DNA of 63,997 nt, filler included, from Stramenopiles sp. TOSAG23-6 (Eukaryota): assembly GCA_900128565.1 (NCBI GenBank). It is 13 parts of 13 records of this genome, joined end to end, with 100 filler letters (N's around TTAATTAATTAA, not from the genome) between each part and the next. Parts side by side here need not be neighbours in the genome. Positions count along the whole stretch, not along the records: positions 39,633 to 44,474 come from LT637039.1; 12 more parts are not named here. The stretch is one strand, 5' to 3'. Numbering within the stretch: position 1 is the first letter of the stretch; the number at the start of each line of letters is the position of its first letter. Below the pieces are notes generated by a model that saw only the letters and a program-made list of their open reading frames with translations, was not told where the DNA came from and made no database searches. The translations under genes were made by a program, and so were the position numbers. This document shows, piece by piece, positions 4,392 to 63,997 of this stretch.

Positions 4392-4867
4392 CTAGCTCTT
4401 GATTGGATCGAATTTTCAAATGATATTCATCACCATGTAACTACGAGCTTTGCCAATATTTTTGAAAATGAAGGTAATAAAATACTATACTACCACTCTC
4501 TCTGGGGTTTGAACTTTTGAAGATCACGTTTTTTTTGACTTTTGAAAATTTGACTTTTGACTTTTGACTTTTGACTTTTGCCTCGTGACGTCATCATTTA
4601 AATTAAATAAAGTTAATTAACACACTTTCAAGGATAAAGTCCTCGGGGAAGGAAGGAATATTTAAAATCTACTAAATATTTTTGATTTTTCATAATATTT
4701 TCAACAATTACTAGCAGGGGCAAAAGATATTGATTGAAATATATTCAGAATTTGTTCAATATATGTGTATTTTATCATTTCAATAAATATTTTGATTCAC
4801 GAATACTTTAGATTTTTTTTCAAATTCGATTTTTTTTTCATACGAAATTTTGTACCTAACAATTTTT

Positions 4868-4967
4868 NNNNNNNNNNNNNNNNNNNNNNNNNNNNNNNNN
4901 NNNNNNNNNNNTTAATTAATTAANNNNNNNNNNNNNNNNNNNNNNNNNNNNNNNNNNNNNNNNNNNN
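4868..4967. other. Artificial contig linker (N-run/TTAATTAATTAA/N-run). Also at 9828-9927, 14788-14887, 19742-19841, 24695-24794, 29645-29744, 34589-34688, 39533-39632, 44475-44574, 49416-49515, 54356-54455, 59296-59395
   Basis: Identical 100-nt six-frame-stop spacer about every 4.95 kb; contig lengths decrease slowly. Confidence 0.98.
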
Positions 4968-5039
4968 TTTTTTTTTTTGAAAATTTTGTACCTAACAAAT
5001 TTAAGTTTTTTTTTTTGAAATATTTTTTCATCATACATG

Positions 5040-9376: not shown

Positions 9377-9501
9377 GTACGTTCTCGTATTACATTAGGG
9401 TTAGTTTTTTTTTTTTTTTTTTTTTTTAAACCCAAAATTTTTTTTTTTTTTAAAATTTTGTTCCCAAAAATTTTTTTTTTTTTTTTTTTTTCACAATACG
9501 G

Positions 9502-9827
9502 ATGGATTTATTTTTCAAAGTGTGTCCGATTCCAGAGGAACGTAAACAAAGAGTTCATTTTCATGATTTTATGATGAATGTTCATAGTCGAATTCGTGCA
9601 GTTAAAGATAATCAATTATTGCAACAGAAAAAATTACAAAAATCACAAAATCAAACATTTACTGGTAACTTGGATTTATCAAATGTACGTTTTTATCATT
9701 TATTTCAAAAAAAAAAAAAAAAAAAAATATTTCGTACGAAATTTTGTACCTAACGATTTTTTTTTTAATTTCAAAAAAAAAAAAAAATATTTTTTCACAA
9801 GATATGAATCCGATGCAATATCAATTG
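9502..9827 (+). CDS. AFG1: AFG1/ZapE-family ATPase, internal exons (GT-AT intron 9685-9805)
   Basis: MDLFF ... [15 protein letters not shown]. Confidence 0.8.
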
Positions 9828-9972
9828 NNNNNNNNNNNNNNNNNNNNNNNNNNNNNNNNNNNNNNNNNNNNTTAATTAATTAANNNNNNNNNNNNNNNNN
9901 NNNNNNNNNNNNNNNNNNNNNNNNNNNTTTTGTACCTAACGATTTTTTTTGAAATATTTTTCCAAAATACAT

Positions 9973-11704
9973 GGGTTTTACATCCACCGAAGTTGAATTT
10001 TTAGTTAGAGAATCTGATACTGATGGTGATGGATCCGTTAACTTTTATGAATTTGCTCCCCTATGTTATGACATGCTTGTAGAGGTTATTGCAAAACAAT
10101 TACCAGATGAAGAAGAAGAAAGAATAGCAAATCAAAAGTTGATGGATGCGAATAAAAAAAAACTTGCCAAATTACTACAAAAACGATATCGAGGATATCT
10201 AGGTCGCCAAAAATCAAAGCAGCGCCGAGCATATCTAAATCGTGACTATAAAAAAAACGACAAAGTTGAAGTTTTATACGTATCAAATGGGTTTTGGTAT
10301 CCTGCCACTGTAGTTAAAAGGTACGCGGGTGGTTTAGATTCTTTTGGAAATTCTAGACTAGTGAACTCTTATAAAGTTCGTTGGTTGGTTGATAATTCCA
10401 TAGATGATAATATACCGCGTCGTAGAATGCGTGAAGGTAATGAACGACATTGGATTCTACATGAACGTTTGAAAGAGAAAGCTCGGATTGAGGCTAAAAT
10501 GGAACAGTTACGAATGGAAGTAGATAGAAAAAAGAAACGGAAAGAAGAACAATTAAAAATGATAGAAAGTTTTTGGGAAGCTGGATTCTCTGGCCCTCTT
10601 TTCCAAGTACAATACTCTGGCGAAACAGATGGGAAAACTGGTATTAGACACGGTGTAGGTAAAATAACTTGGCCAAATGGGGATATTTATGAAGGGGAAT
10701 TCAATAATGGCCTAAGACATGGCAATGGGACAATGTCGGGAAGAAAAGAAGGATCTCGCGAGGGATATATTTACAGAGGTCAATGGAGGAATAGTTTAAA
10801 ACATGGATTGGGTAGAGATGTACGTTTTTATCACTTATTCCAAATGTATTACTTACATGTATTGTTTAAGAATGTATCATTTAAATGTATCATTTAAATG
10901 TATCATTTAAATGTATCATTTAAATGTATCATTTAAAAATGTATTGCTTTACATTGTTCAAATTTTGTAATGGTATAATAACTTAACACCATTTTTGTGA
11001 CATATATGTTTTACTCAATATGAGTATGGTTCATGTGGATTTTATGAAGGTAAATTTTGTGATGGATTATATTCAGGGAAAGGCACACTGGTAACAACAA
11101 GTGGGGTCTATCAAGGACATTTTGTAAAAGGACAAAAAGAAGGCAAAGGAAGAATGAAATGGACATCTGGTGCATCATATGATGGTATGTGGCATAATGA
11201 TAAATTGCATGGCAGAGGACAATATATAGGGCGTAATCCAAGTACGTCTTTCATCATGAATTTCAAGTTTTAATTTCAAAAATAACCCTAATTTCTAAAA
11301 AAATTCTAAACAATTTGAATTTCTATTTTTTCACAATATATACACAACAAAGCAATATGATGGATTTTGGGAATGTGGTATTCGTTGCGGAACTGGTACT
11401 CAGGTGTATGGTAATACTATCGATCAACAAACATTTGTATTGAAAGAAGTGCTCAAGAACAAAAAAGATGTTATCCCTTTAAAATATCAAGGTGACTGGG
11501 TAGATGGTCAATGGCATGGTATGTACGTTTTCATCATTATTTTTTTTTTAAAGTTGTTTAAAAATGTTTTGTACCTAACGTTCTTTTTACTGAAAAACGA
11601 TAAAACGATCACAATACAGTGGTATTATTACACATATAGTTAATATGAAAAAGACTTCTAGACGGGGAGAATTTAGGTTAGGCAAATTGCACCATTGGAT
11701 GTAG
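9973..11704 (+). CDS. EF-hand + IQ + Tudor-like + MORN-repeat protein, 5'-truncated. Introns 10820-11021 (GT-AT), 11242-11341 (GT-AT), 11523-11619 (GT-AG)
   Basis: DTDGDGSVNFYEF; LQKRYRGYLGR; repeated YEGEF..G.RHG.G continuing across the joins. Confidence 0.8.
10871..10936 (+). repeat. Intronic 13-bp tandem repeat (AATGTATCATTTA), about 5 copies
   Basis: Directly visible. Confidence 0.85.
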
Positions 11705-12069: not shown

Positions 12070-13094
12070 TTACTCATCCAAAAAAATACCAGCCATGACA
12101 TCTCCCCATGCTCGTCTTTGAACATCACGAGCATTCCAACCACCCGCGGCTTTTGCGTGTTGTCTTTTCTTTCGTGCCCTACTAGTTTCCTCACCTGTCC
12201 CTATAACGTAAAAAAATATTTCAAAAAAAAATATTGTTTGTTAGGTACAAAATTTCGTACGAAAAAAAAAATTTTAAAAATTGTCAGTAACAAAAACGTA
12301 CATGCGTTGCGATTTCGTCTACTTCGAAATGAATGCATCAGAGGTACAGGTTGTGCTGTTCTCATGGCCCCATGAAATGGTTGATTTGTGTTTTGCGAAT
12401 TTAATCCTAAAAGAGCACCAGATGCAACATCAGCACCACCAGTTGACTGAACAGTTGATTGAGTTACGGATTCATTTACTATTGGGAGCGGTGCTATTTC
12501 TTCAGCATAGGATTCGACAATTCTAGATCTATGGCGGCTTCTACGCTCACGACGATGTTGTTTCTTTGATAGGAGAGACTCCTTTTCTATACGATTGGAT
12601 TCTTCACGTTTTTTCTTTTCAAGTTCAGTGGCTTGTCTCTCTCCCTGTGCTTTTTTAGAACTATTTAAGTCAATTTCGTCACGATGCTTTCTTCGGTATC
12701 GTTCTACTTCACGTTTTGTCGCATCTTCATCTACATGGAAAGCCAACTTATGCACAATCTCCTCTCGTGTTTCCAAATAATCATTAAATGCTCGAAGTGT
12801 TTCAAAGTCTGTCTCTGTTTTGTTGTACGATGCTAAAATACTCTGACGGATTTTGAATATTCGATCACAGTCCATTTGTGACTTTGTCTTTGTACTAAGC
12901 CCCGCTTTTGTAATAATTTTATTACATACTGGACATGGTACAGAAGACCGGCCCGTGAATATACGATTAATACATGTTCCACAAAAACAATGGCCACACT
13001 GCGATATAAGAAAACGGACAGTTCTGTCAAAATAACTAACATTTCGATTCTGACACTTCTGGCAAACTGCTGAACTTGAAGTATTTCCTCGCAT
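12070..13094 (-). CDS. MNAT1: CAK/TFIIH assembly factor MAT1; GT-AG intron 12201-12301
   Basis: RING CGHCFCGTC..CPVC; FNDYLETREEIV; the last exon gives AAGG..RRAW. Confidence 0.9.
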
Positions 13095-14695: not shown

Positions 14696-14949
14696 GTATG
14701 TTTTATTATTTTTTTTCCGGTAAAAAAAAATTGAATTTTTTTTATAGGAAATTTTGTACCTAACAAATTTTTTTAGATTTTTTTTGANNNNNNNNNNNNN
14801 NNNNNNNNNNNNNNNNNNNNNNNNNNNNNNNTTAATTAATTAANNNNNNNNNNNNNNNNNNNNNNNNNNNNNNNNNNNNNNNNNNNNTATTTCGTACGAA
14901 ATTTTGTACCTAACGATTTTTTTTTTTGAAATATTTTCCTAAAATATAT

Positions 14950-16667: not shown

Positions 16668-16758
16668 ATGTATTTTGGAAAAATATTTGAAAAAAAAACC
16701 GTTAGGTATAAAATTTCGTACGAAAAAAAAATCGAATTTGAAAAAAAATAAAACATAC

Positions 16759-17457
16759 ATTCCTCCTAAAAAACTTGTAAANACTGGGAAGACNGANAGA
16801 AAATATAACTGATAGTTCATTGCTCNTGTGGTCATGAAAGACGTTAAACAAAAATGTATTTNGAAANCATATNTTTTTTTAAATTTTTTGTTAGGTACAA
16901 AATTTTCATACAAAAAAAAAAAAAAAAAAACCCTAACCCTAGTAACCCACATTTGTAAACCAAGTCCCATTCACTTGACCAAAAAAAGTATTCGAATCAT
17001 TATCTTTCATTACCAAGAGAAAACCTGCAGTAAAACTACATGAACATATTATAACTCCATAAATCCAATTACGACGAGTGACGTTACCAAAAGGCGTTCG
17101 TAGATTGATGAATAAGTCGACAGCAATTGCCGTAAGACAACAGGATGAGCCAGTCAGACAAAACTGTGTAAAGAAACTGGCCAATTTACCCTCAGGGCCA
17201 CTGCAATAACATACATCATCTTTAAGTTCCGTGTTTATCACACTCAAGTTAAAGCCAATATCATAGCACGCTTTAAGNAACAGAAGTGGGTTTGGNTGTC
17301 GACGAAANGAAGGTCTAAGCATATAGGTTAATATAACAAACAAAGCACAAAAGCAAGATATTGTATTTCCAGTCACTGTAATCCTAACCATTGAAAGAGT
17401 ATTGAATACCAAGTATGTGTCTTTGTATTCATCATTTGTGCAGTGTAATAGATCCAT
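16759..17457 (-). CDS. GPCR-like 7TM receptor, N-terminal ~5 helices (GT-AT intron 16854-16950)
   Basis: Multiple TM segments; ISCFCALFVILTY, FFTQF, AVDLFINLRTPF. Confidence 0.65.
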
Positions 17458-19961: not shown

Positions 19962-21494
19962 AATAGCAACAAGTAATCGCCCCCCAAATGATTTATATTT
20001 AGATGGTTTAAATAGAGAATATTTTTTACCTTTTATTCAAACTTTACAATCACATTGTAAATTATATGACATGAATGAAATGAAAAATATAAAAATGATG
20101 GAAAAAACAGACCCTAACCCTAACCCTAACCCTAATCAAACAACTTTCAAAAAAAATAAAACAATGAAAAAAATTGATCATAGGAGACTTTCTACTGCTT
20201 TTAGTGATACGAATGAAACTTCATTATATAGATTTCCATTATCTAAAAAAACATCAATTGAATTTTATGATTTTTTAAATCGTAATTATGTAAAAAATTT
20301 GTATGTTTTTTTTTATATTTTCAATTTTTTTTTTTGGTTTTCATACGAAATTTTGTACCTAACAATAATTTTTTATTATCCAAAAAAAAAAAAAAAATAT
20401 TTTTAACAAAATATAAAATTTACAAAAATGAGTATACCAACCATCTTTGGTAGACATGTTACTATTGAAAATGGCTGTATTGATGGTGGAATTTGTTATT
20501 TTAGTTTTGAAGAAATTTGTGGGTACTCTAGTGATAAGAATGCCACGTGTTATCGTGCGATTTGTGAGCATGTTTGTTCTCATCATTTAATTTTTTTTGA
20601 AATGTTCAGAATTTTCAAAAAAAAAATTTTTTTTTTTTTTGAAATTTAAATTGTATACAAAATTGTATAGTAATACCTAACAAAAAAAAAATAGAATTTG
20701 ATATATTTTTTTACTCTACATTTCAATATAATTGCAATTGATGGAATACCAATATTAAATGCATTACCATCATGGGTCGTTCCATCAAGTGGTGGTCATA
20801 ACGCAGCTAGGAGATTTATTACAATGATTGATCAATGTACGTTTTTATTTTTTTTTCAATTTTTTATCGAAAAATTTTTTCATACGAAATTTTGTACCTA
20901 ACGAATTAAAATTTTTTTTTTTCACAATAAATGTTATGAAAGAGGAAATTTGTTATTATGTACTGCTAATGCAAAACCTGATGAATTGTTTATTTCAGAT
21001 GCAGCTATTAGTGCAACACCAAGTCCAATGGTGACTGATATTGATTATAATCCTTTAATGGAAACTGAAAGAAAGGATTTTATGAGTACAAATAAAAAAA
21101 ATAAAAACAATAAAAAAAATGAAAAAAATGAAAAAAATAAAAAAAATGAAAAAAATGAAAAAAATGAAAAAAATACTACAAATGACACAAACAATAATAT
21201 AGACCCATCACAAAGTGTACTAAATAATGATTCTAGAAATATTGCATCAGTAAAAGAATTAGAATTTGCTTTTCAAAGAGCTGTACGTTTTTCATATGAT
21301 GAATTTCGAATTTATTTTTTTATATCATGAATTTCGAATTTATTTTTTTCATAAATTTTTTTTTTGTATTTCACATTTTTTTTTGACCAATTTCAAATGT
21401 AAAATATTTCTTCACAATACACACATCTCGTTTAATTGAAATGAATAGTACAACGTATGTAGAAAAATGGAAAGAAAAATATAGAAATGAATAA
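19962..21494 (+). CDS. AFG1: AFG1/ZapE ATPase, C-terminal part. Introns 20301-20414, 20572-20721, 20837-20932 (GT-AT) and 21283-21422 (GT-AC)
   Basis: IATSNRPPNDLY, FLPFI, ARRFITMIDQCYE and FAFQRATSRLIEM are restored. Confidence 0.88.
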
Positions 21495-34836: not shown

Positions 34837-35906
34837 TTAATATATACGAATGCTCTATTAAACGCTCCATTATAAAAGAGACATAGCACAAAAATTGTTG
34901 AGACATTATTAGCAAGATATGTGGGCACATTTCATTTTTTTGAGCTTTGAGATCTTCCGAGATGTTTGTATTGTGAAAAAATATTTTTTTTTTAATTCGT
35001 TAGGTACAAAATTTACTATGAAAAAAAAATGGTATGTAAAAATGCACGATTTGAAAACTTACATTTACCAACATATTTAATCAACGAATTTAAAACTATA
35101 AAATTATGTGGTTTTGATAATAATTCGCCGATATGGCCGATACGATATCCAAGAACATGTATAAATGATAGACAGACAAACACAAATTTAATTTGAACGG
35201 AAATTTTCTTCTCAGAGCATTTGGAATTGTTAGGATTACTAGGGTTGGGGCTCCCGATACATTTGAGTTCACTAAATACTTCAAATAGCTGGTGTAAAAG
35301 TAATGGACCAGTTTCATCTGGTATATGAGGGCATAACATCACGTGTACAATAAATGGAACTAATATTCGAAATATCATCGCGTGTTGCTTCGTCTCATTG
35401 AACAAAAGATGCACATCAGATAGAATGTTAGCTGATGTTGATGGACAGACACGAATCAGCGAAATAAAGGGATGTATATTTTCAGTAATGGAGTACTGTG
35501 GAAGTGACTGGTTATTATCATACGCTGTTTCAACTTCGCATATAAGTAGTTGACGAATTGCAGCTGAAACATGACAAGACGACATGCCTGGTTCAATCTT
35601 GGTGGCTGCATCTAAAAGAGAAGTGTAACACTGTAACGCTGAAAGCACGCCCATCTCGTAAAGCTGTATTAACCCAAAACATGCTGCGTGTGCAACAATT
35701 GGAACCTCATAGAATGATGCGCAAAATTCACAGAGAAGCTTAAAATATGCGGATTTCATTGTGATCGTCTGTGGTGTCTGTGGTAACTTTGAGCTTTCAT
35801 ATATTAACTTTAGCAATTGACGAACTGATTCACGCTGGATATTTCTTTGAACAGTCCGTGAACGCACACGAAGGAGACTAATAATTTTATCATAATCCTT
35901 TTTCAT
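34837..35906 (-). CDS. HEAT/ARM-like protein N-terminus (possibly focadhesin-like); intron about 34966-35062
   Basis: Helical 280-aa exon with HPFISLI; the frame continues after a family intron. Confidence 0.5.
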
Positions 35907-36218: not shown

Positions 36219-37427
36219 ATGTCTTATCTGGAAAGTATTGGATTATATCAACGGAAGGATGGATCCTTTTACGAGAATGGTTGTGCTGTACCATTTGTTA
36301 TTCGTGCTCAAATTGTAGATTTGCTGTTTAAAAGTAGGATTGAAAAGCAAGAGAAAAACTTTAACAGTGTTCACTACATTGAGAATGAAGAATTCTATAT
36401 TAGAGACAAATTTCATGTATGCCGCAAAACATACACAAAGTACTTTGATGCGTTTCTTACAATATTTTCAGACGCTTCAAAGTATTTCAATATTAGAAAT
36501 AAGGATGAATTTTTGAGAGTATACGCTTTAAGCATAGATTCACTACGACCTGACGACAAGAGAGAAAGATCACTACGAAGTGAAGTTATAGATGTTGTGT
36601 TGAGGGATATAGTAGAAAGAGATAGAAGTGGTTTAATTAGAGAATATCAAAATGATCTTGGTGAAGCAACTGGTGTATGGCTTTGTGAATCTGCAATCTG
36701 TGTAAGGCTTAAGAAGTTGGGATTAACTAGAAAAAAACTATATAAAAACTTTGCTGAGAGATTAACTGAAGAGATTCTAGAAGACTTAGAGAGATATGGT
36801 CAGGTTTTAAACGCGATAGACCACAAGAGAATACATTACTTTGATGAATCTGGTTTCTGTGGTCAGCTTATAGGGAGGACATATGCTCGAAATGATCCGG
36901 GTAGAAATACAACCAGTGATACAGTTAATCCCAGTCGAACTCATTATACATTAATGGGTGTTACTTCAATACGGAAATCAAAACCTGCTTTGCTATGGAA
37001 GACAATGAAAGGTGGTGCCAAGCGAAGTGATATGCTCAAATTCCTATGCTCTAAAAGGGTTCTTTCTAGTTTCAAACGTGGAGATGTCCTTGTTTTAGAT
37101 AATTGCCGTACACACAAATTTCAAGGGCAGGAGGCCCTTGAAGAAGTATATGGTTTAATTGGGTGCCATGTTTTCTTTTTACCTGCATATCATCCGATGT
37201 GTAATGGGATTGAATATCTTTTTGGGTGGTTAAAGAAAATACTCCGCCGTGTCGACACATTCACTAGAGATGACGAATCTCTACTTACCTATGTTGAATA
37301 CTATTTGCGAAAAGTAAATACAAAATTAATTAAATCATTTTACAAACTTGCTGACAAAAAATTGAAAAAAGAAATGAACCTACTAGATACCAGATTGGAG
37401 GCTATTAGGAATGTACAAAATGAATAA
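36219..37427 (+). CDS. DDE transposase (DD37E) with paired-domain-like N-terminus
   Basis: YFDESG, VLDNCRTH, FLPAYHPMCNGIE; 37 residues lie between the second D and E. Confidence 0.92.
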   Translation: MSYLESIGLYQRKDGSFYENGCAVPFVIRAQIVDLLFKSRIEKQEKNFNSVHYIENEEFYIRDKFHVCRKTYTKYFDAFLTIFSDASKYFNIRNKDEFLRVYALSIDSLRPDDKRERSLRSEVIDVVLRDIVERDRSGLIREYQNDLGEATGVWLCESAICVRLKKLGLTRKKLYKNFAERLTEEILEDLERYGQVLNAIDHKRIHYFDESGFCGQLIGRTYARNDPGRNTTSDTVNPSRTHYTLMGVTSIRKSKPALLWKTMKGGAKRSDMLKFLCSKRVLSSFKRGDVLVLDNCRTHKFQGQEALEEVYGLIGCHVFFLPAYHPMCNGIEYLFGWLKKILRRVDTFTRDDESLLTYVEYYLRKVNTKLIKSFYKLADKKLKKEMNLLDTRLEAIRNVQNE

Positions 37428-40162: not shown

Positions 40163-43100
40163 ATGAAGACAGAAAACATTACCGTGTCTGTTCGTTTTCG
40201 TCCCATGAATGAGCGGGAGTTGAATAAAAATGCAAAGACGTCGTGGGGTTGGTATGTTTTATTTCCACATTAAAGTATTTGCGTGTTGCATTATGTACTG
40301 GTTTGTGTTTCTATCGAGTCAAGCTGTGAAAATACTTTCTAACATCAATTTGTATTCATTTGTATTATTTTTTTGTCCTCCTATTTTACACTACACAGTA
40401 TGACAGAGCATAAAAGTGTGTGTCGCAAAGATAAAGATGGTAAATTAGATACATCAATGGCATTTTCATATGATCATGTATTTAATGGTGATGATGGGAC
40501 AAGTCATGTATACAATCAAGTGGCAAAACCGATTGTTCAACAATTCTTGGCTGGCATCAATGGAACAATTTTTGCTTATGGTCAAACCTCAAGTGGAAAG
40601 ACATATACAATGCAGGGTGATGGTACAGTAAAAGGTTGTGGAATTCTACAAAACAGTGTTACTGAGCTATTTGAATGTATCAAGCAAAATCAAAAACGTC
40701 AATATATTATTCATGTCTCATATATTGAAATATATAATGAAAATATTAGAGATCTTCTACGAAGCGACGGACCAATGTGTAAAGTACGTGAAGATAGAGA
40801 TCGCGGTATATATGTTGAATCATGTGATTTATTAGTACTTAATGCTTCTGATGTGTTATCTCTATTATCTCGTGGTGAAAGAAATCGACACGTGGCATCA
40901 ACTGCAATGAATGATACATCGAGTCGGTCACATACTATTTTTAAAATGTCTCTGGAATCTCAAGAATTAGAAATTAATTCAGAGACTGGAGAGTCAACTA
41001 CAATAGGTCCCGTGCTACAAAGTTCTCTAAGTCTTGTCGATTTAGCAGGATCAGAAAATGCAAAAAACACGCGCGCTAGTGGAACTCGACTTCGAGAAGG
41101 TGGAAATATTAATAAATCATTACTTTCATTATCTCGTGTAATGTGTCAAATATCAGATGGACATNCTCATGTACGTTTTTATTAGACATTTCAAATGTAT
41201 CATATCATGTAAATGTATTTTTTTTACAAAGAAAATTTTGTAGCTAACGAATTTCATACTTGAAAGATATTTTTTCACAAAACATCCAAGTTTCAGAGAT
41301 TCAAAATTAACTTGGATACTAAAACCATCTTTAGCTGGTAATTGCCGAACTGCATTAATTGCATGTGCAACTTTAGCTGATCAATTTGTAGAAGAAACTC
41401 AATCAACGTTAAAATTTGCAAGTCGTGCTAAAAACATTAAAACAAGTGTTGCAGTGAATATGTATGTTTTATTTTTTTTTTTCAAATTCGATTTTTTTTC
41501 GTACGAAGTTTCGTACCTAACGATTTTTTTAGATTTTTTTTTAATATTTTTCCAAAATACATGATTTTAGATGATAAAGCAAGAATGAATCAATTGAATA
41601 AAGAAGTGAAGCACTTACGTGCAAAACTACGTGTTTTTGAAGAAGGAAATTCAAACTTCAAAAAGAGATTAAGTGGTGGCAGTACAAAAGGATTGATGAG
41701 ATTTGATGATGATGATGAAATGACGCATAATCAAAAATTACAAACACAATTACATTGTTCTGAGAATGAAAAGTTGAAGCTTGAGCAAAAAGTAAATGAT
41801 CTAAAAAATATGATTGTTAAAAATGGGTTTTTATCTCGTACTAAACATTCACAAAATGGAGGCATGAAACGATCTGGAGAGTGGATGGCACCTTTAAGTG
41901 TTGAAAAATTGCGAGGAGCGAACAAAAGGCGTAAGAAAATTCGTGGCACTTGTATGATTTATTTTCATCATTTTAATTTTAAATGTATTCTTCAAATGTA
42001 TTTTTTTGTATCATGTCTAACAAATTTCAAATTTGATATACTTTTTAACAATATCTGGTATAATTTATCTGATAATTTTAATTGGCGAGATGACATTGTT
42101 GGTGGTGATAAAGATGAATTTAAGAGAATTAAAGCATCTCATTCACAAGACACGAAATCAATGTTGGATGGAAAGTTTGCTAAATTAGCTAATGGTTGTG
42201 ATGAGAATGAAAATGTTGTAAATACTAAAAAATCCGAAATTCCAAAAGTAAAAAGAAGCGTAAGTTTTGACGTTAATTTTGAAAATGATAATTGTAAAAC
42301 ACCAACACAAAAAAAAACACCAGTGTCTCGTTTTTTTAGTGTACATGCAGCATTAACACCAAGTGCAGATACACCACGTAAAGCAGCTTTAAAACAAGCT
42401 CTTGTTAATATGTACGTTTTCATCATGAATTTCAATGCAAATGTTTTGTTTCCATTTTTTTTTTATTGTTGAAAATTTTATATCTAGGAATTTTTGTAAC
42501 GTTTTCTTTTATGATCTATTTTTCACAATACATGGAAGAGAAATTAGAAATTGCAGATGCCAAGTCTGTAGAATCGAGCAAAATCGTTGAAGATATGAAA
42601 ACAAAATTAAACGAAATTCAAGAAAAGGCTGAAATGGCTGAAACGCAAAAAAAAGATTTAGAGAAAGCAAATGCTGAATTGAATGCTGCTGAATTAGAAG
42701 TAGAGAGAGCACGTATGTTTTGTGTATCCCTATTTTGAAAAATATTTTTCAAATTTCAAATGTATCTATTTTTCAAATTTACAATTTCTGATGTCTCCTA
42801 CATTTCTAATATATTATTTTTTCTAATACATTTCAAATTTATGTATATATATATCCCCGAAACTATAGTAATGAGAGCTGAAGATTTGAGTGGAAATTTG
42901 TTGGAAATTCATCAAGCAAAACAACTTGAAGAAGAAATTGAACAACATGAAAATGAAATTCAAAGACATGAAGATGAAAAAAGGTTGGTTGAAATGGATC
43001 AATATCGCAAAAGATTAGCACAAATGGAAGAAGAAAAAACTAATTTAAATGAAAAAAACTGCGAAAATGAAAAAAATTTTGATAAGATAAATTTGAAATT

Positions 43101-44841: not shown

Positions 44842-45294
44842 TTTTAAAATTTCTTAGGTACAAAATTTCCTATGAAAAATAAATTCGATTTTTTTGTTTA
44901 AAAAAAAAATTTTACAATTTTGTTTTATATAATAATATATGATTTGTTAACATAGTATTTAATAAAAACTAAAAATAAAAATTTTACATTTTTGTTTTTT
45001 ATTTACAAATTGTTTTTGATAAAACAATGAATGAATTTTTTTTTTTCAATTTTGATTTTGTTTTCGTACGGAATTTTGTACCTAATGGGTTTTTTTTGAA
45101 ATATTTTCCAAAATACATAATAAAGAATGAATGATTCATTATATATATAATTATTTTCATTTACCAATTTTGATATTGAATGGTGTTATTTTGGGTTGCG
45201 GTTTTAAATTTTTTGATTTCGCTTCTTTTTTTGATTCTTCTTCTTTAATTTTTATATTGTTTTTTTATTTTTCCCAATTTTCGTATTGAATCTA

Positions 45295-48200
45295 TTATAT
45301 ATACACAAATACATTTGGAGAAATTCCATTTGGAATTGGACCAGATAGATTGTTGTCTTTCAAGATCACGTTTTGGAGCTTTGTAAGTCGTAGAATTTCC
45401 TTTGGTATTGAGCCAGATAGTGTGTTGTTGCCCAAATGCAATTTAACGAGATTTGTTAGTTGACCAATTTCTTTTGGAATTGAACCAGATAGTTCGTTTC
45501 CCGACAAGTACAATCTTGTAAGATTCGTTAGTTGACCAATTTCCGTTGGAATTGGACCAGATAATTTGTTGCCATTCAAGTACAAATATTCGAGATTTGT
45601 TAGTTGACCAATTTCACTTGGTATTGGACCAAATAGTCTGTTGTTTGACAAGTACAAAGTAGTGAGTTTTGTTAATTGACCAATTTCCTTTGGTATTGGA
45701 CCAGTTAGTTTGTTCATTGACAAGTTCAATTCAATAACACTTCCTTCTTTATTACACTTGACTCCTTGCCATTTACAAATATCTGGATCTTTTATCCAAT
45801 TATCTTTACGATTCCAATTGATTCCATCATTATTATCATACAATACAGTTAAAGCATGTTTGTCCAATAACTCGCGATAAATACCTTCTACACGTTGTAA
45901 CCATTGGGTTGATGACTCCTCTGGTATTTTTTTATTGACTGATTTAATATCTGCATTTGCATCTAGAGATTTAATCAGTTTTATCACATTTTTAGATATA
46001 ACACGTGCGCGGCTGCCAAATTCAGCGTTACTTACCTCGTTCATCCCACGTGAAACAGGAGCTAAACGAGCTAATTCATCATTAGTTAAATTGGAACCGA
46101 AGCTTGAACTTACGTCGTGCCCTGCTTGTAGTACTTGTTCTACCATAGTTCCTGTACTTTCTCCGTTAGTCGCACCAATACCAATATCGGTATGAATTCT
46201 ATTAATCCCGAATGTTACTCGTGTCCCATCTTTAAAGTGAAAAATAGAAATATTCTCAGTTGCTTCAACTTTCACAACTTTTTTACTGTTTAATTTTTCG
46301 TCTCGAACAATTTTAGGTATGAGTTGATCATTTTTATTACCATGACCAAATTGACCATAAGTTCCATCTCCCCATGTGTATACATCACCATTTTCAAGTA
46401 ATACAACAGTGTGTTTATAACCAGCTGATATCTGCTTTACTTTTTTATCTTTTAATTCTTGAACAAGTGTAGGTATGAGTTGATCTTTGGTATCACCATG
46501 ACCAAGTTGACCATTATATCCACTTCCCCATGTGTATACATCACCATTATCTAATAATGCAACAGTGTGAAAAGAACCAACTGATATTTGTTTTACTTTT
46601 TTACCTTTTAATCCTTTTATAAGTTTAAATGTTTTTTGATAAGTTCTATTACCATGACCAAGTTGACCATTAGATCCATCTCCCCATGTGTATACATCAC
46701 CATTTTCAAGTAATACAACAATGTGTCGAGGTCGAGTAAACATGTATTTTGGAAAAATATTTCAAAAAAAAAACTTTAATTTGTTAGGTACAATTTTTTT
46801 TTACCAAAAAAAAAGGAAAAGTTCCTACAAAAAAAATAAAAAATAAATAAAAGTAAAACATACATCTGCTTCACTTTTGTATTTCCAAATTCTTCAACAA
46901 TCCTAGGAAGAAGTTGATTTCGATTATCTAAAGGACCATAATATGCCCATATGTATACAGTACCATTCTGAAGAAATGCAACACAATAGAGAGTATGACA
47001 AAACATTTTTCCTTTTTCAGATGTATATGTCATTTTTTTATCAATACCTGTTGCTTGATGTTTTTTATCAATAACTGTTGCCGAAGTGGCGGCCATACTT
47101 CTATACGTTGCTGAAGTGGCGGCCATACTTCTATACGTTGTTGGACTTGATATTGCTGAAGAGGCGGCCATACTTCTATACTTTGTTGGACTTGATATAT
47201 ATGTATAAGTAGATGATCTGTTTAGTAATGGTTGAAATAATTTTGAAATTGCTGTACTTTGTATTCTTGTATTCCAATCTGGTACTGTCTCAGCTTTTTG
47301 TTGTTCCCAAAATTGTTTTGATTTCATTTCAGGAGAAATATAATTCAAATAATTATATCTAAATGATACAATTAAAGAAAGTAATGGCAAAATAATACGG
47401 GATTGTAATTTTTGTGCTTCAACTTGTGCTTCAACTAGTGTCCTATAGGGTTCTTTTGGAGAATCCAGATATCTGATTATAGAGGCTGGAGGTTTTCTTC
47501 GTGAAATATTTTCCATATTTTGTGTATTCCTTTTTCCAGATGATGATATATTCGATGGAAACAAAGATGGCTTTTGAATATTTGCCGCCGCCGCAGCTCG
47601 AGCTGCCCCTGATGTGGGTGTGGTAGTGCTCCCCTTCGCCACAGCTGTCCCTGTTGTCATAATAGCTATCGTCGTTGCCGCCATTTTGTTAAATTCATCA
47701 AAAGTAGACGGTTTCAAAACTTTAGGTGAAACTCTGCGGAAACTACCGCGTGGTTTCAAAGATAATGGTAAAATGTTATGACGTATGGTCGGTGCCGCCA
47801 CAGCTGCTCCTGCTGCCGTTGCCGCCGTTGCCGCCGCAGCTGCCCGTGTCAGCACCATTTTGGGGAATTTCTTGTGTACATTTGTTTGTAAAGATTTGCC
47901 TAATGGATTTTTGAGAGCTTGTTTTCGAAGAGGCTGAACTATTGTATCATCCTTATTTTTTACAGTACTATTTAATGGGGATTCATCTCTATCATTAGTC
48001 TGAATGATATTTGCACCAGCAGCAACAAGCAATTGAACTATTTTTTCATGTCCATTCTTTGAAGCAATAAGCAATGCAGTTTCTCCGTCTTCATCAGCCA
48101 GATTGACATCAGCACCAGCAGCGATAAGTCGTTCAACTATATCTTCATTACCATTCTCTGAAGCATGATACAATGCAGTTTCTCCGTATTCATCAAGATG

Positions 48201-49223: not shown

Positions 49224-49571
49224 TTTTTCTTCTTCAAAAATACATTTTTCAAGTATACATTCATCTATTAGAGATCCGTTTGTATATATTGTAAAGACAT
49301 ATATAAATATATATATATATATTTTTAGTACAAAAAAAATTCTATGAAAAAAAAAAAAAAAAAAAAAAATTTTTTAAAAAAAAAAAAAAAAATTTTTTAA
49401 AAAAATTTTTAAAAANNNNNNNNNNNNNNNNNNNNNNNNNNNNNNNNNNNNNNNNNNNNTTAATTAATTAANNNNNNNNNNNNNNNNNNNNNNNNNNNNN
49501 NNNNNNNNNNNNNNNTAGGTACAAAATTTCGTACGAAAAAAAAATTGGAATTTGAAAAAAAATAAAACATA

Positions 49572-50195
49572 CATTCCAGTGTCATCAAAAAATGATATCT
49601 TGATATTATCCATGGCAGCCCGGCAGCATCGCTTAAATTGGGTGTTTTTATGATCTAAAGTTTTCAGCTGTACTTGTCCACTTGTTTCATTCTCTAAATG
49701 TAATGCAAATAACTTCAGCTTCACTTGCGCTTTTACCTGACTCATTGACAAAGCATACGAATTTTCTTCCCACGCTAATAGTTCACTCTGCATCTGCTTC
49801 ACTCTATTCAACACAGCATATGCTCTAAGAGTTAATGCAATAATTCTCCGTTCTAGTGATATTCTTAATTCACTGGATCGTTGTTTATATTGAACAAATG
49901 AATTTTCAACTTCACTCCTTTCAGAAATTCCTAGTGTAATGTTCTGAGCAGTTTTGAGGCTATCCTGAAGTACTTTAATACGTAACTTTCGTACTAATCG
50001 TCTCTTTGAAGCCAATTCTTTGATATGAGACGACAAACCTCCTACATGCTTTGAAATAACTGAGATATCTGTGGTTATTTTCAAAAAATTGAAAAGAGTA
50101 GGACCAATAGCTTTGGCGAAATCGCTTTTCATATCTTCTCCAACTCCACTTGCCTGGTCAAGCTTTAGCTCTGCAAATGTTTGCGGAAAAAGCAT
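49572..50195 (-). CDS. Hypothetical coiled-coil protein, truncated at an intron
   Basis: ORF ending at the donor AT|GTATGT. Confidence 0.55.
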
Positions 50196-54304: not shown

Positions 54305-54505
54305 GTATGTTTTATTTTTTTTCAAATTCGATTTTTTTTTCGTACGAAATTTTGTNNNNNNNNNNNNNNNNNNNNNNNNNNNNNNNNNNNNNNNNNNNNT
54401 TAATTAATTAANNNNNNNNNNNNNNNNNNNNNNNNNNNNNNNNNNNNNNNNNNNNAAAAATGAAAATGTTTCTCCCCAACAACAACGTAAAAAAAAAAAA
54501 AAACC

Positions 54506-59181: not shown

Positions 59182-59193
59182 TGTACGTCTTCA

Positions 59194-59229
<36 letters not shown>

Positions 59230-59242
59230 GAAAATTTTGTAC

Positions 59243-59291
<49 letters not shown>

Positions 59292-59752
59292 TTTTNNNNN
59301 NNNNNNNNNNNNNNNNNNNNNNNNNNNNNNNNNNNNNNNTTAATTAATTAANNNNNNNNNNNNNNNNNNNNNNNNNNNNNNNNNNNNNNNNNNNNTTTTC
59401 AGGATCAATTTTAAATTTATTTATTTTTCATACGAAATTTTGTACCTAACAAAAACTTTACTACAAAAAATATTTTTCCAAAATACATGGATACCATGAA
59501 TATTCAATCAGAGAAAAAATAGCAAGCTCTTGTACAGTTCAAAGTAGTATCTCAGATTCTAGTAGTATCAGATGTTTATCAACGGATGAAATCTATTCCA
59601 GTATTCACAAAATATATAGTCCTACTCATCTTTGTGGGTGTCACGATTGTCAGTGTATGTATGTTTTAATTTTTTTTTTGTATGATTTTTTTTTCGTACG
59701 AAATTTTGTACCTAACGAGTTTTTTTTTTTGAAATATTTTTCCAAAACGTAT

Positions 59753-62508
59753 TTCTCCTAAAAAGGTCCAGTGAAACTCGAGGTGAAGAACTAGATGATT
59801 TTGATTATGCTTTATTATCTGGAATCTTTGTTGCAAGTGCTAGATTGTTACATGAAAAAAAGGTACGCAAATCTAATTTAGATAGCCATGAAAAGTTGAA
59901 AAAAGATTTGGGTACAATTTTAATTAAGAATCTCGTGCCATTGTACGTTTTCAATTTCATTTTGTTTTTATTTTTGGTACGAAATTTTGTACCTAACGAT
60001 TTTTTTACTTAAAAAAATATTTTTCACAATACGGACTCCGTAAGTTTCAGGCTGATAGTGCCACCATTGAACAATTAGTATCTTTGCCTCGATATTTTGA
60101 CATTGAAAGTTATGAAGTTCATCGTCAGCAAAAAAGTTTCTCTAGACTTTTAAACATGTTGTCAGATTTATATTTAAAACACGGAGATGAACGCGTTTTA
60201 CAATCAATTTCAAACACATTTTTATTTCTAAAAGATGGAAAGCATTCTCTAAAAGACGAAGTCGTTGTACTCGCTCAGAAACTCACAAGTAATATAGTTA
60301 ATAGAGTTCAAGAACTACTACGTGATGATGAGACCGATTACCAAAAGGCACAATCTGTTAAAGAAACGTCATCAAAAATGAAGACTAAGGCACGCGCATC
60401 AAGTGTGAAAATTTCAAAAGAGAACGACAAAGAGACTAACCTTCTATGTTTCCTACGCCGTTTGCGAGCTTTATTTGAAAAAATTGATGTCAGTTCGAGT
60501 CTCCCCGCTAATCTATATAGCGCTTTACATACAGTCATTTCTCGACGCACTGAGGATGGCCTCCATTTACGTTCATATAGAGAAGATCCGCATTCTGGTG
60601 TTGTTGTGCAATCACTTTCTATTTTAGCGACTACATTGGGTCATGTATGTTTTTATCTTCAATTTCAAATGTATCAAACTTATTTTATTTTCGTACGACA
60701 TTTTGTACCTAACAGTTTTTTTTCGAAAAATACTTTTCACAATACAGGAAGTGTATACACTCCAGCGTCTTTTGGAAGATCAGTCAGATTCTGTCGGTGT
60801 TACCGGTGGCGATGATAATGAAGAAATGAAAGAAACCGATGAACTAGATGAAGCCCGGCTCATTGTAGAATCGTTAGGCAGCTACCGTGATAATATCAGT
60901 AATCGTTTATGCTCTATCATGGCAATTGATAGTTCCGATTGTCAGTCAATCAAGGAAATAAATCTCATCCGTGCATATAAACTTCAAGCATATTCTATCG
61001 GATTTGATATGCGCTCACTTTTTAGTGAAGCTGCTTCAAACGGTAGTGGACCGTATCAGAAAGATTCAACATATAATGAAAAAGGTTTCATATATCCACT
61101 CAAATCTCTTCAATATGACATGCCACCAACACTTATCCGTGATTGTCATCGATTTTTCAATGAAGAAATGGTCACAGGACGTGAGCGAAATGCAAAGCTG
61201 CTTTTAAGAAAAGAGAGAAAGAAAAAAGGAGATACATTTGCAGAAAAAATGGCAAAAGCTGAGCGTAATACAGCATTACTTCGATTATCAGATTCAGAAA
61301 TTTCAAAGACGGTATTTCCTCTTTTCCCAGCATTAGCTCGAGTTCTCAACTCTAATCCTAAGGCAAAACGTGAAGCAGCTGTTCTTGTATCTTTAATTAA
61401 TGAATCAGGAAAAACTGGATCCGGTATTGTAAATGATTGTACAAAGACATTACAGCGTCGGGTCGGTGGTAAAGAATCATATCTAAAAGTTCAAATGGCG
61501 GCACTTCGTCATACATATCGACAATTGCAAACATTAGCTGAAACCGGATCTGATGAAGATGAGGATTCCGATAATGAAGAATCGAGTTCTGCTTCTAAAG
61601 TATACCAAGCATATACAAATCTCCTGTCTCTCGCTAGTCGTCTTTCTTCGTTCTATGGAGTCGGTACTGTACCTGTAAATCTCCGCGTCGCATGGGAAGA
61701 TCATATATTAAGTGGTGTAAAGTTCGCGTTTCAGCAACTACCTAATCAATTAGGATTCCTCGATGTGATGGATTATTATGTGCGTAAATTGCCAAAAGCT
61801 GCCAAATCCAGTGTATTGAAAAAGTTTGAACTTTTGGCAGATGAAATGGGTGTCATAAAAGCCGCGCGTGAGAATCAGTTGAAAGTTCGTGCTCAAGGCA
61901 ACCATTCTGATGATGAAGACGATGATGACGATGACGTAAGTGAAAGTATGTGGGCTGCGTATACTGCTTTTCGTGACAGACTTGAAGAAGATTGTCAAAC
62001 AAATAAACGTAAACGTGGTGGTGTCGTTACTAAAGAATCGTTACATAAAAATGATGAAAGTCAACAAAATATTCGTCCGAGTAAAATATCTCGGAGATCT
62101 ACTGATGGATCGAGAATATCTCGAGAAAACAATGATACAGAATTTGCTATAAACAATCTCAGNGATGATGAGTCGGATAATGGTTTTGGTATAGAGTCAA
62201 AAAGTGCAAGTGCGCGTTTGATTGAAGCTGTAGACTCTGATGTGAGTGATTTTGATAATTCTATCGATCATGAATTTGGTAATTCTATGAGCAATAATCG
62301 CCGAAAACGACAGAAGACACTTAAACCTGAGTTATCATTTGCGAAGCATCGACGTCATAGTACACATAGGTCATCATATGATACATCTAGTGCTAGTTTA
62401 AAAAGTGGTCAGAAACGGTCCGCTGTGGATATTGACTCTGATGATTCAAGTGTAAATGAAGGAGATTACGATGGGCTTCCTGAACCTGTCATGAGTCAAG
62501 AGTTCTAA
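59753..62508 (+). CDS. Cohesin subunit STAG/SCC3, C-terminal part. Introns 59943-60034 (GT-GG) and 60645-60747 (GT-AG)
   Basis: LVPLLRKFQAD, LPRYFDIESY, KHGDERVL; acidic tail. Confidence 0.7.
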
Positions 62509-62817: not shown

Positions 62818-63997
62818 ATGGTGAAAGCTCGCTGTCTTGCACTAAATGTCTTGAGCTCTATATCCAAGATAGAAGCAGGTCGAGAAGCAATTATAAAAGA
62901 GAGCGTGGTACCGATACTATTTGGCTTGTTATCCGATTCAAGAGCAGAACAACGTTTCGCAGCTCTTCAGGTAGTTAACGTTCTTTCGGGATTTAAAAGT
63001 GGAAGAAAGGCGCTTCTTGCTGGAGAATTTCCAAAAAGTGCTCTACTATCAGCTTTGAGCGACGAGTCTAGTGGTGGAGCTCTCCAACTATGTATGCTCC
63101 AATCAATAGCAAATTTGACGGAGATGTCAACTGGAATTGATCTGATACTGGAGTGTAATGCATTACCAATTATTATACAAATACTGCGTGGATCCAACCA
63201 AAACGAAAAAGAAGAATCTGATGAAGTGGAAAAAGATTCTACCTTTCGTCGGAAAGTATTGATTGCGACACTTCAAACTGTCTGGAATCTTTCACACGAC
63301 GCTAAAGGTAACGAAATGTGTATGAAAGAGGATAGTGTTGCTGCTATATGCAAATCAGATGCGAAAATTCTTGAAAAAGCACCTGAATGGTCCATTGTAG
63401 AGAGATGTGCGAGTGGTGCGTACGTTTTCAAAATTGAATTTCCAATTTTTTTTTCTTAGAAAATTTCATACCTAACAAAACAAAATATATATATTTTTCA
63501 CAATATATTTTAATGGCATTGTCCACTTCCTTAGGTGGTAAAGTGTGCATATCAGAAACTTCAGAAGGAGTTGATGTCTTATCTGCACTAGCAGCAAGAG
63601 AAGATAAATCAATATCAACAAATGCATGGCAGTGTATGCGAATGACTGCGAAATATCTTCCTGTTGGACCTAGATTTGTCCTTTCCCTACTCGATCAAAC
63701 AAAACTACTCGTTGATGTCTTTGGTGTCGCTGCTTTACATCATCTTGGAAATCTTCTCAATGACAATGAAGGTCGAAGTGAGATTGCAGAATTAGCAGCA
63801 GATGCTATTGAGCTTATTACACGAAATGAGGAAGGACAAAAAGCAGCACAACAGGTATTATACATGGAAATAGGTCTTGCTCGAGTATTGTGTAATAATA
63901 AAAGTAATAGAGCTCAAAGAAGTGCTGCATCTGCACTTAATTGTGTCTGTACTGGAAACAGTGGTAAGGGCTGTTGTCGAGAACTAAACAAGGCGAT
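62818..63997 (+). CDS. Armadillo-repeat protein (RSPH14-like); GT-AT intron 63420-63508; runs off the window
   Basis: ARM-like helices; the join gives CASGALMALS. Confidence 0.6.

Follow-up and report, generated by a model that had tools for sequence, protein, structure and literature searches.

The window analysed here is a stretch of 63,997 bases from the genome assembly of Stramenopiles sp. TOSAG23-6 (GCA_900128565.1). It contains a kinesin gene whose reading frame is interrupted at positions 41462-41562 of the plus strand by a putative intron of 101 nucleotides (nt). In nearly all eukaryotes, about 99% of introns obey the GT-AG rule. The kinesin intron belongs to a family of short introns recurring in genes of the window, which keep the usual donor and branch-like sequence but mostly end in AT.

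The window consists of 13 contigs of approximately 4.86 kb each, joined by twelve spacers (N44-TTAATTAATTAA-N44), the first at 4868-4967 and the others at intervals of about 4.96 kb. Since the contigs are separate, pieces that lie side by side need not be linked in the genome. The sample is about 63 kb of a fragmentary assembly, with 62.9 kb of non-N sequence. The GC content of 2-kb windows is approximately 26-41%, and the host is an AT-rich stramenopile. Eukaryotic genes in the window include those encoding V-ATPase subunit A, kinesin, cohesin SCC3-like, MAT1-like, and Sin1-like proteins, and THOC7, among others. The gene for 6-phosphogluconate dehydrogenase (6PGD) has no introns. For both the dehydrogenase and V-ATPase A, the best-scoring named relatives are from stramenopiles: dictyochophytes come first (68-80%), then raphidophytes, brown algae, labyrinthulids, and oomycetes.

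A family of introns with GT..AT boundaries

The sequence at the kinesin site reads ...GTGAAT AT/GTATGTTTTA...CCAAAATAC AT/GATTTT, where strokes mark the cuts. It has the arrangement AT[GTAT...ATAC]AT that an initial annotation, made from the sequence alone, had described for 41460-41562. The intron (AT/GTATGT...CCAAAATACAT/G) is in phase 2, and the frame stays open only if the segment removed is 101 nt long or differs from this by a multiple of three. A search of the PDB with the exon following 41562 gave a chance match only. Because AT stands at both sides of the intron, the frame alone cannot separate the boundaries AT..AC, TG..CA, and GT..AT. The initial annotation had left this choice open; it is settled in favor of GT..AT by protein homology and by an RNA contig.

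The junctions were established by homology for V-ATPase A and one SCC3-like intron, and by RNA for one intron, whereas those of the other copies are based on frame only. Splicing of seven V-ATPase A introns as GT..AT produces a 1677-nt stop-free frame, the product of which shares 86.8% identity with P0126, a relative of 639 residues encoded by a transcript-like contig of 2258 nt. Further relatives are P0127, P0130, and P0125. None of the seven junctions introduces an alignment gap relative to P0126, P0127, and P0130. The exons preceding introns 5, 6, and 7 end in TC, GA, and CT, so that alternative boundaries give different proteins. Intron 5 (8523-8621, plus; TC/GTACGT...CACAATACAT/G) and intron 6 (8751-8847, plus; GA/GTATGT...CACAATATAT/G) are at the positions where P0125, P0126, P0127, and P0130 read ...ISGRL-G-EMPAD... 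and ...VVG-AVSPPGG..., respectively, and only GT..AT yields these sequences, keeping RL-G-EMPAD and VG/AVSPPGG. Intron 7 (9100-9205, plus; CT/GTATGT...CCAAAAAACAT/G) interrupts ...LQET-VQLVGK..., as read in the two closest relatives, P0125 and P0126, and again only GT..AT produces ET/VQLVGK. Boundaries AT..AC would alter conserved residues at TC and GA and, at CT, a residue kept in the two closest relatives. A contig from a poly(A) metatranscriptome joins 8522 to 8622, skipping 99 nt with GT..AT boundaries and a one-base ambiguity. The far end of the same contig continues as the exon preceding the previous intron, intron 4 (8283-8380, plus; AT/GTACGT...CACAATGTAT/G), the X6 RNA contig passing from 8378 into the upstream exon. 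The boundaries AT..AC and TG..CA are ruled out by the homology at the TC, GA, and CT exon ends together with the RNA joint. RNA runs X10 and X9 leave most exon bins of 8315-9827 uncovered and were not used for any conclusion.

Two further sequences cover the V-ATPase A gene. A 196-nt contig from seawater run X3, the kind of which was guessed ("DNA?"), spans 8670-8749 and 8848-8962 without the intron 8751-8847; it could derive from cDNA or from an allele in the population that lacks the intron. P0125 (243 residues, 93% identical) was predicted on a contig of 4963 nt that may be DNA. Its sequence passes uninterrupted over three of the V-ATPase intron positions before it continues into a tail rich in Arg, Ser, and Gly, which would point to a relative, perhaps richer in GC, without these three introns.

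A profile built from four copies and iterated gives 39 matches in the window, covering 4.3% of the bases. The introns are T-rich, with a typical length of about 90-120 nt. Copies in the kinesin, sulfotransferase-like, Sin1-like, V-ATPase A, and SCC3-like genes are 74-90% identical from end to end. The inner box TTTCRTACGAAATTTT occurs 23 times with at most one mismatch, as compared to 0.07 times in shuffled sequences, and resembles no splice signal that we know of. The filler TTCAAATTCGA is exact in five copies of a young subgroup. Six of 24 contig ends are located inside a copy (P = 4e-4, given the fraction of bases covered by copies), which indicates that the assembler broke at the copies. 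In three seawater runs, the summed contig depth, which may include other organisms, is 10^4 over the copies and about 3 over the flanking exons, a difference of three to four orders of magnitude. The designation introner-like, used in the initial annotation, is borne out by the number of matches, the identity of copies in five genes, the inner box, and the broken contigs. Of the profile matches, 27 adjoin or sit in a coding open reading frame (ORF) of the same strand, and no match runs antisense to an identified gene. In environmental contigs, further copies have the boundaries ...GGACAT/GTACGT and ...AAAATACAT/G. A 19-base core pattern searched in public collections matched three metagenome loci, in the core alone, and no viral contigs.

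The census of introns comprises 29 full introns, four donors cut off from their acceptors by a contig end, and six acceptors at contig starts. It was steered by the family motifs and open frames, is not exhaustive, and has two uncertain members (9377-9501 and 16668-16758). The donor consensus is GTAYGTTTT: GT and a G at position +5 are present in 29 of 29 introns, and position +4 is C or T in 28. The conserved inner box TTTCRTACGAAATTTTGTACCTAAC includes a branch-like CTAAC. The CTAA box is present in 25 of the 29 introns, with CTAAC positioned 31-52 nt (median 38) from the 3' end. The branch-like box is followed by a T tract, and the 3' box of the family is TTTTTC(A/C)CAA(A/T)AY.

The position of the 3' cut is fixed, whereas its dinucleotide varies: it is AT in 28 of 35 introns, AG in three, GG in two, and AC and AA in one each. 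Ten copies with long ORFs on both sides are in frame when cut two bases past ATAY (chance 1/3 per copy); copy 59660 is ambiguous in this test, with two upstream frames open. The GG end of the SCC3-like intron 59943-60034 (plus; TT/GTACGT...CACAATACGG/A) is backed by the homologue P0241, to which the sequence PLLRKFQAD aligns with no gap, and a shift of the junction by 2 nt costs 8 in alignment score. An AG occurs between the branch-like box and the cut in 9 of 29 introns. In the RNA-verified intron 8523-8621, the site TTTTTTTAG, composed of a T tract and AG, is passed over. Among the 26 introns without an AG end, 12 have no in-frame AG within -60 to +45 nt.

The exon ends before GT differ from background. 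Among 33 curated donors, AT precedes GT in 22, T is at position -1 in 28, A is at position -2 in 23, and AG is found in none; the initial annotation, which had counted about 23 AT, 30 T, and no AG among approximately 38 donors, was close to these values. The 2157 GT sites in ORFs of at least 150 amino acids are preceded by AT in 11.5% and by AG in 4.5% of cases, and the excess of AT has a binomial P of 1e-13. The lack of AG is not significant from composition alone (P = 0.22), though striking beside other eukaryotes. The 11 other exon ends are CT (three), TT (two), TC, GA, AA, GC, GT, and CG. The first exon base after the intron is G in 22 of 35 cases, and the usual spliced junction is (C)AT/G. 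The same AT/G is present at both cut sites, as is AG/G in ordinary eukaryotes. Of 13 AT/G junctions, eight split a Met codon (phase 2), as compared to 3.7 predicted from the frame usage of ATG in long ORFs (P = 0.02, small numbers).

Copies across the window

In addition to the intron at 41462-41562, the kinesin gene contains an intron at 41171-41285 (plus; AT/GTACGT...CACAAAACAT/C) in the motor domain, where the exons on both sides match the kinesin motor profile (24-279) and PDB kinesin chains (residues 277-332), and one in the tail at 42412-42533 (plus; AT/GTACGT...CACAATACAT/G). The remaining V-ATPase A introns, all on the plus strand, are intron 1 (7369-7461; AT/GTATGC...AAAAATACAT/G), intron 2 (7599-7756; CT/GTATGT...CGCATTACAT/T), and intron 3 (7855-8025; AT/GTATGT...CACAATACAT/G). 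A possible eighth intron (9377-9501; AT/GTACGT...CACAATACGG/A) is uncertain, because it is based on frame only and the protein downstream aligns poorly.

Further full introns on the plus strand are at 10820-11003 in a gene with MORN repeats (AT/GTACGT...GTGACAT/A), 11242-11341 (AA/GTACGT...CACAATATAT/A), 20301-20414 (TT/GTATGT...AACAAAATAT/A), 20837-20932 (AT/GTACGT...CACAATAAAT/G), 59659-59752 in the SCC3-like gene (AT/GTATGT...CCAAAACGTAT/T), and 63420-63508 (GC/GTACGT...CACAATATAT/T). The intron 10820-11003 contains a short tandem array of AAATGTATCATTT units. The minus strand carries introns at 23839-23995 (AT/GTACGT...CAATACTACAT/G), 24145-24301 (GT/GTACGT...TACAATATAT/G), and 46742-46863 in an ankyrin/RCC1/LRR gene (AT/GTATGT...CCAAAATACAT/G). 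In the Sin1-like gene, also on the minus strand, are an intron at 26459-26629 (CG/GTACGT...ACTTTCTAT/G) and a near-consensus copy at 28187-28277 (AT/GTATGT...CCAAAATATAT/G). Another near-consensus copy, 16668-16758 (minus; AT/GTATGT...CCAAAATACAT/G), is located among N letters and may be an intron of a 5' untranslated region.

Ends in AG, at the same position as AT in other copies, are found in 11523-11619 (plus; AT/GTACGT...CACAATACAG/T), which has a short downstream exon, in 12201-12301 of the MAT1-like gene (minus; AT/GTACGT...ACGTTATAG/G), and in 60645-60747 (plus; AT/GTATGT...CACAATACAG/G). The intron 21283-21422 (plus; CT/GTACGT...CACAATACAC/A) ends in AC and precedes a short last exon, and 34966-35062 (minus; AT/GTAAGT...CACAATACAA/A) ends in AA. 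No relatives of the protein hosting the AA-ending intron were found among 1.84 billion representatives.

Copies cut by contig ends retain the 5' part, with AT/GTATGT, at 14696-14787 (plus), 49516-49572 (minus), and 54305-54355 (plus). A 5' part with AT/GTACGT is near a contig end at 59183-59249 (plus). The 3' parts at contig starts, all on the plus strand and followed by G, are 4978-5038 (...CATCATACAT), 9928-9972 (...CCAAAATACAT), 14888-14949 (...CTAAAATATAT), 29745-29799 (...CCAAAATACAT), and 59415-59488 (...CCAAAATACAT). A further 3' part of a copy is at 9730-9803 (plus; ...CACAAGATAT/A).

Some copies are positioned outside recognizable ORFs. The full-length copy 45029-45118 (plus) has a decayed donor, GAATGA in place of GTATGT, and AT is still present before the copy and at its own 3' end. 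The copy 16856-16921 (minus) is truncated at its 5' end and lies between two genes, right after a telomere-like box. The copy 4813-4867 (plus) lacks approximately the first 10 nt and is cut by a contig end. These decayed and truncated copies fit a sequence that also lands outside genes. In the segment 44575-45298, which follows a minus-strand gene on its downstream side, three copies or fragments are found on both strands within 700 nt, and no clear ORF separates them.

The telomere-like box TAGGGTTAGGGT occurs ten times in the window, as compared to 0.06 expected, at sites 2020, 4003, 7660, 16930, 20111-20134, 31597, 31630, and 39868. It is mostly intergenic, flanking the gap before the 6PGD gene on either side, for example, and may be a promoter element of the telo-box kind. 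A search of the window with Rfam found no small nuclear RNA at gathering scores and one weak match resembling a small nucleolar RNA (E 0.04). The sequence 24795-24835 at a contig start resembles the 3' half of a tRNA (..GGTTCGAGTCCC), and ARAGORN finds no whole tRNA in the window. An ORF of 402 residues without introns (36219-37424, plus), squeezed between two host genes, encodes a DDE_3 (PF13358) transposase domain. No relative of it was found in the PDB. No convincing terminal repeats were found around the ORF, and none that resemble the ends of the intron family.

Origin and removal of the introns

The intron at 41462-41562 is probably one copy of a multiplied family of T-rich introns, that is, an introner, spliced GT..AT. 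The short T-rich sequence would have multiplied through genes by insertion, each copy bringing its own donor, branch-like box, T tract, and 3' box. The RNA is cut before the G of GT and two bases past the ATAY box. With the position of the 3' cut fixed, the last two letters of the intron are AT by default, and AG, GG, AA, or AC can stand at the same place. The AT before GT would mirror the landing place of the element, which would enter at AT followed by G, and splicing would restore the original message. The observations above show the family, its removal from RNA, the GT..AT boundaries, the fixed 3' position, and the excess of AT before GT; from them we infer that the cutting is performed by the major spliceosome, that the copies spread by insertion, and that AT is the preferred target.

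It is possible, although the case is tentative, that the major spliceosome of this stramenopile lineage no longer picks the 3' site by AG. It would cut two bases past ATAY, approximately 38 nt after the branch box, with AT as the default and other dinucleotides tolerated, and would pass over good sites composed of a T tract and AG. Such a rule would have co-evolved with a single introner family that supplies most or all introns and enters at AT/G.

As one of three readings, the initial annotation had offered an inverted repeat combined with a duplication of an AT target, which the copies do not demonstrate. In the kinesin intron, ATGTAT (41460-41465) is the reverse complement of ATACAT (41557-41562). 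Of the consensus copies for which this complementarity had been claimed, 41462-41562, 46742-46863, and 7855-8025 have it, whereas 28187-28277 ends in ATATAT, with one mismatch. The perfect 6-nt palindrome, formed by the exon AT plus GTAT and by ATACAT, is present in just 5 of 29 introns, because 16 of the 29 donors read GTACGT. The perfect 4-nt repeat is found in six of the 29, and there is no locus-specific match between the 5' and 3' sides beyond the consensus. The caveat that exon ends other than AT are not copied at the intron end held without exception (0 of 11 copied). AT is present on both sides in 14 of 29 full introns. The correlation of exon-end and intron-end dinucleotides, which the initial annotation had suggested as a check, is absent, with matches at positions -1 and -2 equal to the shuffled expectation. 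In such a case a duplication cannot be told from an insertion preference, and Gozashti et al. (PMC9860276) describe the same ambiguity for AG. A TA target of the Tc1/mariner style was rejected, since it would demand identical flanking bases in every host gene.

Several observations weigh against an introner removed in this way. The terminal inverted repeat is 3-4 nt at most, below the threshold of at least 6 nt, and no target duplication is demonstrable, as none of the non-AT exon ends is mirrored and the matches between the two sides are those of shuffled ends. Exon-end AT is equally frequent in near-consensus and diverged copies (0.83 and 0.82, P = 0.59). This speaks mildly against erosion of an original AT target with age and would be compatible with a signal under selection, such as a changed U1. 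Direct RNA evidence covers one junction, in a single contig with a depth of 3.5, and a second is implied by the other end of this contig. The near-consensus copy 16668-16758 misfits a long downstream frame. The sole transposase-like ORF in the window, 36219-37424, is without family-like ends, and the motif-guided census could miss introns unlike the family. Lastly, the kinesin intron itself contains an in-frame site composed of a T tract and AG, TTTTTTAG, 30 nt upstream of its 3' end, which is formally possible. Its use would add ten mostly hydrophobic residues, and by analogy with 8523-8621 it is discounted as probably unused. The other GT..AG candidate for 41462-41562, through the AG at 41570, is out of frame.

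The excess of AT before GT might instead be a splicing signal. The canonical 5' end of U1 small nuclear RNA is ACUUACCUG, and the last exon base pairs with U1 position 9. An altered U1, or another part that binds the 5' exon, could pair with U at -1, so that selection keeps AT/GT; this is unlikely, although it deserves serious consideration. The equal frequency of AT in diverged and near-consensus copies is as expected for a maintained signal, the preference for T at -1 and A at -2 is pronounced, and the C or T at +4 of the donor could fit a changed pairing face of U1. However, the repetition of AT/G at the intron end and next exon base, where the 3' end is read by other factors, is left unexplained. 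Furthermore, Fritillaria, with far more changed 5' sites, keeps the U1 5' end strictly (PMC13326754).

Removal by the minor (U12-type) spliceosome or one like it is improbable. The minor spliceosome is known to accept a wide range of 3' dinucleotides and to select the site by distance instead of AG, in agreement with the positional cut that tolerates AT, AG, GG, AA, and AC, and the 5' and branch boxes of the family are long and conserved. However, the donors read GTAYGT and not the U12-type [AG]TATCCTT; the C at +5 of [AG]TATCC is absent from all 29. The CTAAC is much farther from the 3' end than the U12 branch motif (TTCCTTRAC), which in Physarum is about 10-12 nt away. The T tract after the branch-like box is a U2-type trait, and the termini are GT..AT instead of the AT-AC or GT-AG of U12-type introns, with AT..AC excluded by homology.

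It is very improbable that the intron ends pair in the RNA (AUGUAU with AUACAU) to form a helix that sets both cuts, as proposed for euglenid nonconventional introns. GUA can pair with UAC or UAU in 24-28 of 29 introns, the helix of the ends is present in the minimum-energy fold of three of eight folded copies and in the centroid of a fourth, and the 3' cut is fixed relative to ATAY. However, this pairing potential stems solely from the consensus that the copies have in common: at each position the number of pairs is what shuffled ends would give, and the ends do not covary. The fourth pair (+4 with -6) holds in 11 of 29 introns, and the perfect palindrome is as rare as stated above. The eight folds are no more stable than shuffled sequences (z-scores from -1.0 to +1.0), so that end-to-end pairing, which the initial annotation had offered as one reading, found no support. 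Exon ends TC, GA, and CT are unable to pair with AT, yet these introns are spliced. The one hairpin that recurs in the folds pairs GUACGA with UUGUAC just before CTAAC.

There is a slim chance that no mobile element is involved, and that these are old introns of a lineage with long, strict splice signals on which the motifs converged. The best-conserved parts are the donor, the box beside CTAAC, and the 3' box. For many members, the alignment to the consensus is limited to these parts, giving partial profile matches, and the T-rich filler inflates the apparent similarity. However, the young subgroup shares the filler too, at the identity given above, the assembly breaks inside copies, and the depth over copies is thousands-fold that over exons. 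Decayed or truncated copies outside ORFs (45029-45118 and 16856-16921), and P0125, which reads through three V-ATPase intron positions on a contig that is perhaps not DNA, also argue against old introns.

Excision from DNA, as with the internal eliminated sequences of ciliates, would suit short, AT-rich elements that crowd coding sequence and stand between direct repeats, one of which is left behind. It would also suit a contig of guessed DNA origin (X3) without 8751-8847, and a transposase-like gene without terminal repeats of its own. Such excision is nevertheless extremely improbable, because no copy is antisense to an identified gene, an orientation bias not needed for DNA excision, the copies bear donor, branch-like, and T-tract signals, the X3 contig may be cDNA or an intron-free allele, and the intron-free form is seen in an RNA library. 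We know of no nuclear dimorphism in stramenopiles.

Comparison with other non-canonical introns

The comparisons with known systems are based on excerpts of the cited papers. Introners with GY-AG ends occur in Micromonas, Aureococcus, and many aquatic protists (PMC11282704; Gozashti et al. 2022, PMC9860276). Similar to the introners of Micromonas pusilla and Aureococcus anophagefferens, the family described here consists of many near-identical short introns in unrelated genes that carry some or all of their own splice signals. Also shared are a short junction repeat that lets splicing restore the message, and aquatic unicellular hosts, including other stramenopiles. Introners, however, have GY-AG ends, target duplications of 3-9 bp, and often clear terminal inverted repeats. 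By contrast, the introns described here end in AT in 28 of 35 cases and in AG in three, with an invariant junction repeat of 2-3 nt and an inverted repeat of at most 3-4 nt.

The introns of the tunicate Fritillaria borealis that are derived from miniature inverted-repeat transposable elements are likewise transposon-like, with non-AG 3' ends that include AT (PMC11282704; PMC13326754). The non-canonical introns of Fritillaria are removed by the major spliceosome, and diverged U2AF paralogues recognize the new 3' ends (PMC13326754). The 5' end of these introns is non-canonical as well (AG-AC, AG-AT), the boundaries are diverse, and the host is an animal. Unlike in Fritillaria, GT and the yeast-like GTAYGT are kept here, only the 3' dinucleotide departs from the canonical form, and the host is a protist.

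The introns of Amoebophrya are also repeated and non-canonical, in a marine protist; their ends form an inverted repeat, and a direct repeat of 3-5 nt spans the boundaries (PMC7789003). They have no preferred dinucleotide pair and inverted repeats of 8-20 nt, and Amoebophrya lacks a recognizable U1, whereas the single pair GT-AT dominates here and the inverted repeat is minimal. The U12-type introns of Physarum polycephalum resemble the family in mass gain, long signals, short terminal inverted repeats, and a 2-nt direct repeat, which is TA there (10.1101/2020.10.12.336362). However, their donor is [AG]TATC[CT]TT, the branch motif is 10-12 nt from the 3' end, and GT-AT is a tolerated small minority, as compared to the donor GTAYGT and a branch-like box approximately 38 nt upstream in the family. 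Euglenid nonconventional introns share the non-canonical 3' ends, short junction repeats, and possible pairing of the ends (PMC11282704; PMC4770533; PMC6221363), but are without a GT donor, U1 complementarity, and a pyrimidine tract, all three of which are present here.

No report of a family or genome with GT-AT as the main class, nor of a similar case in stramenopiles, was found in the literature, although the supplementary tables of PMC9860276 might list one. The excerpts of two papers on genomes of uncultured stramenopiles (PMC5778133; 10.1101/2020.10.15.341214) mention no GT-AT class.

An introner family with a textbook donor and branch box but an AT end would confine the change to the 3' splice site. 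Mass departures from the GT-AG rule are few (Fritillaria, Amoebophrya, euglenids, and Physarum) and provide the main evidence on how spliceosome specificity changes. With the change confined to one site, the choice of the 3' site could be tested more cleanly, as could a role of mobile introns in driving spliceosome change. If the 3' splicing rule has changed as proposed above, GT-AT would be the rule for the whole genome and not a rare exception. In practice, gene callers that enforce GT-AG will get most genes with several exons wrong when they annotate single-cell and metagenome assemblies of this lineage. For 12 of the 26 introns without an AG end in the window, there is no in-frame AG alternative nearby. 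The family would illustrate how a mobile sequence in a marine protist gives rise to introns that violate the usual rule of splicing.

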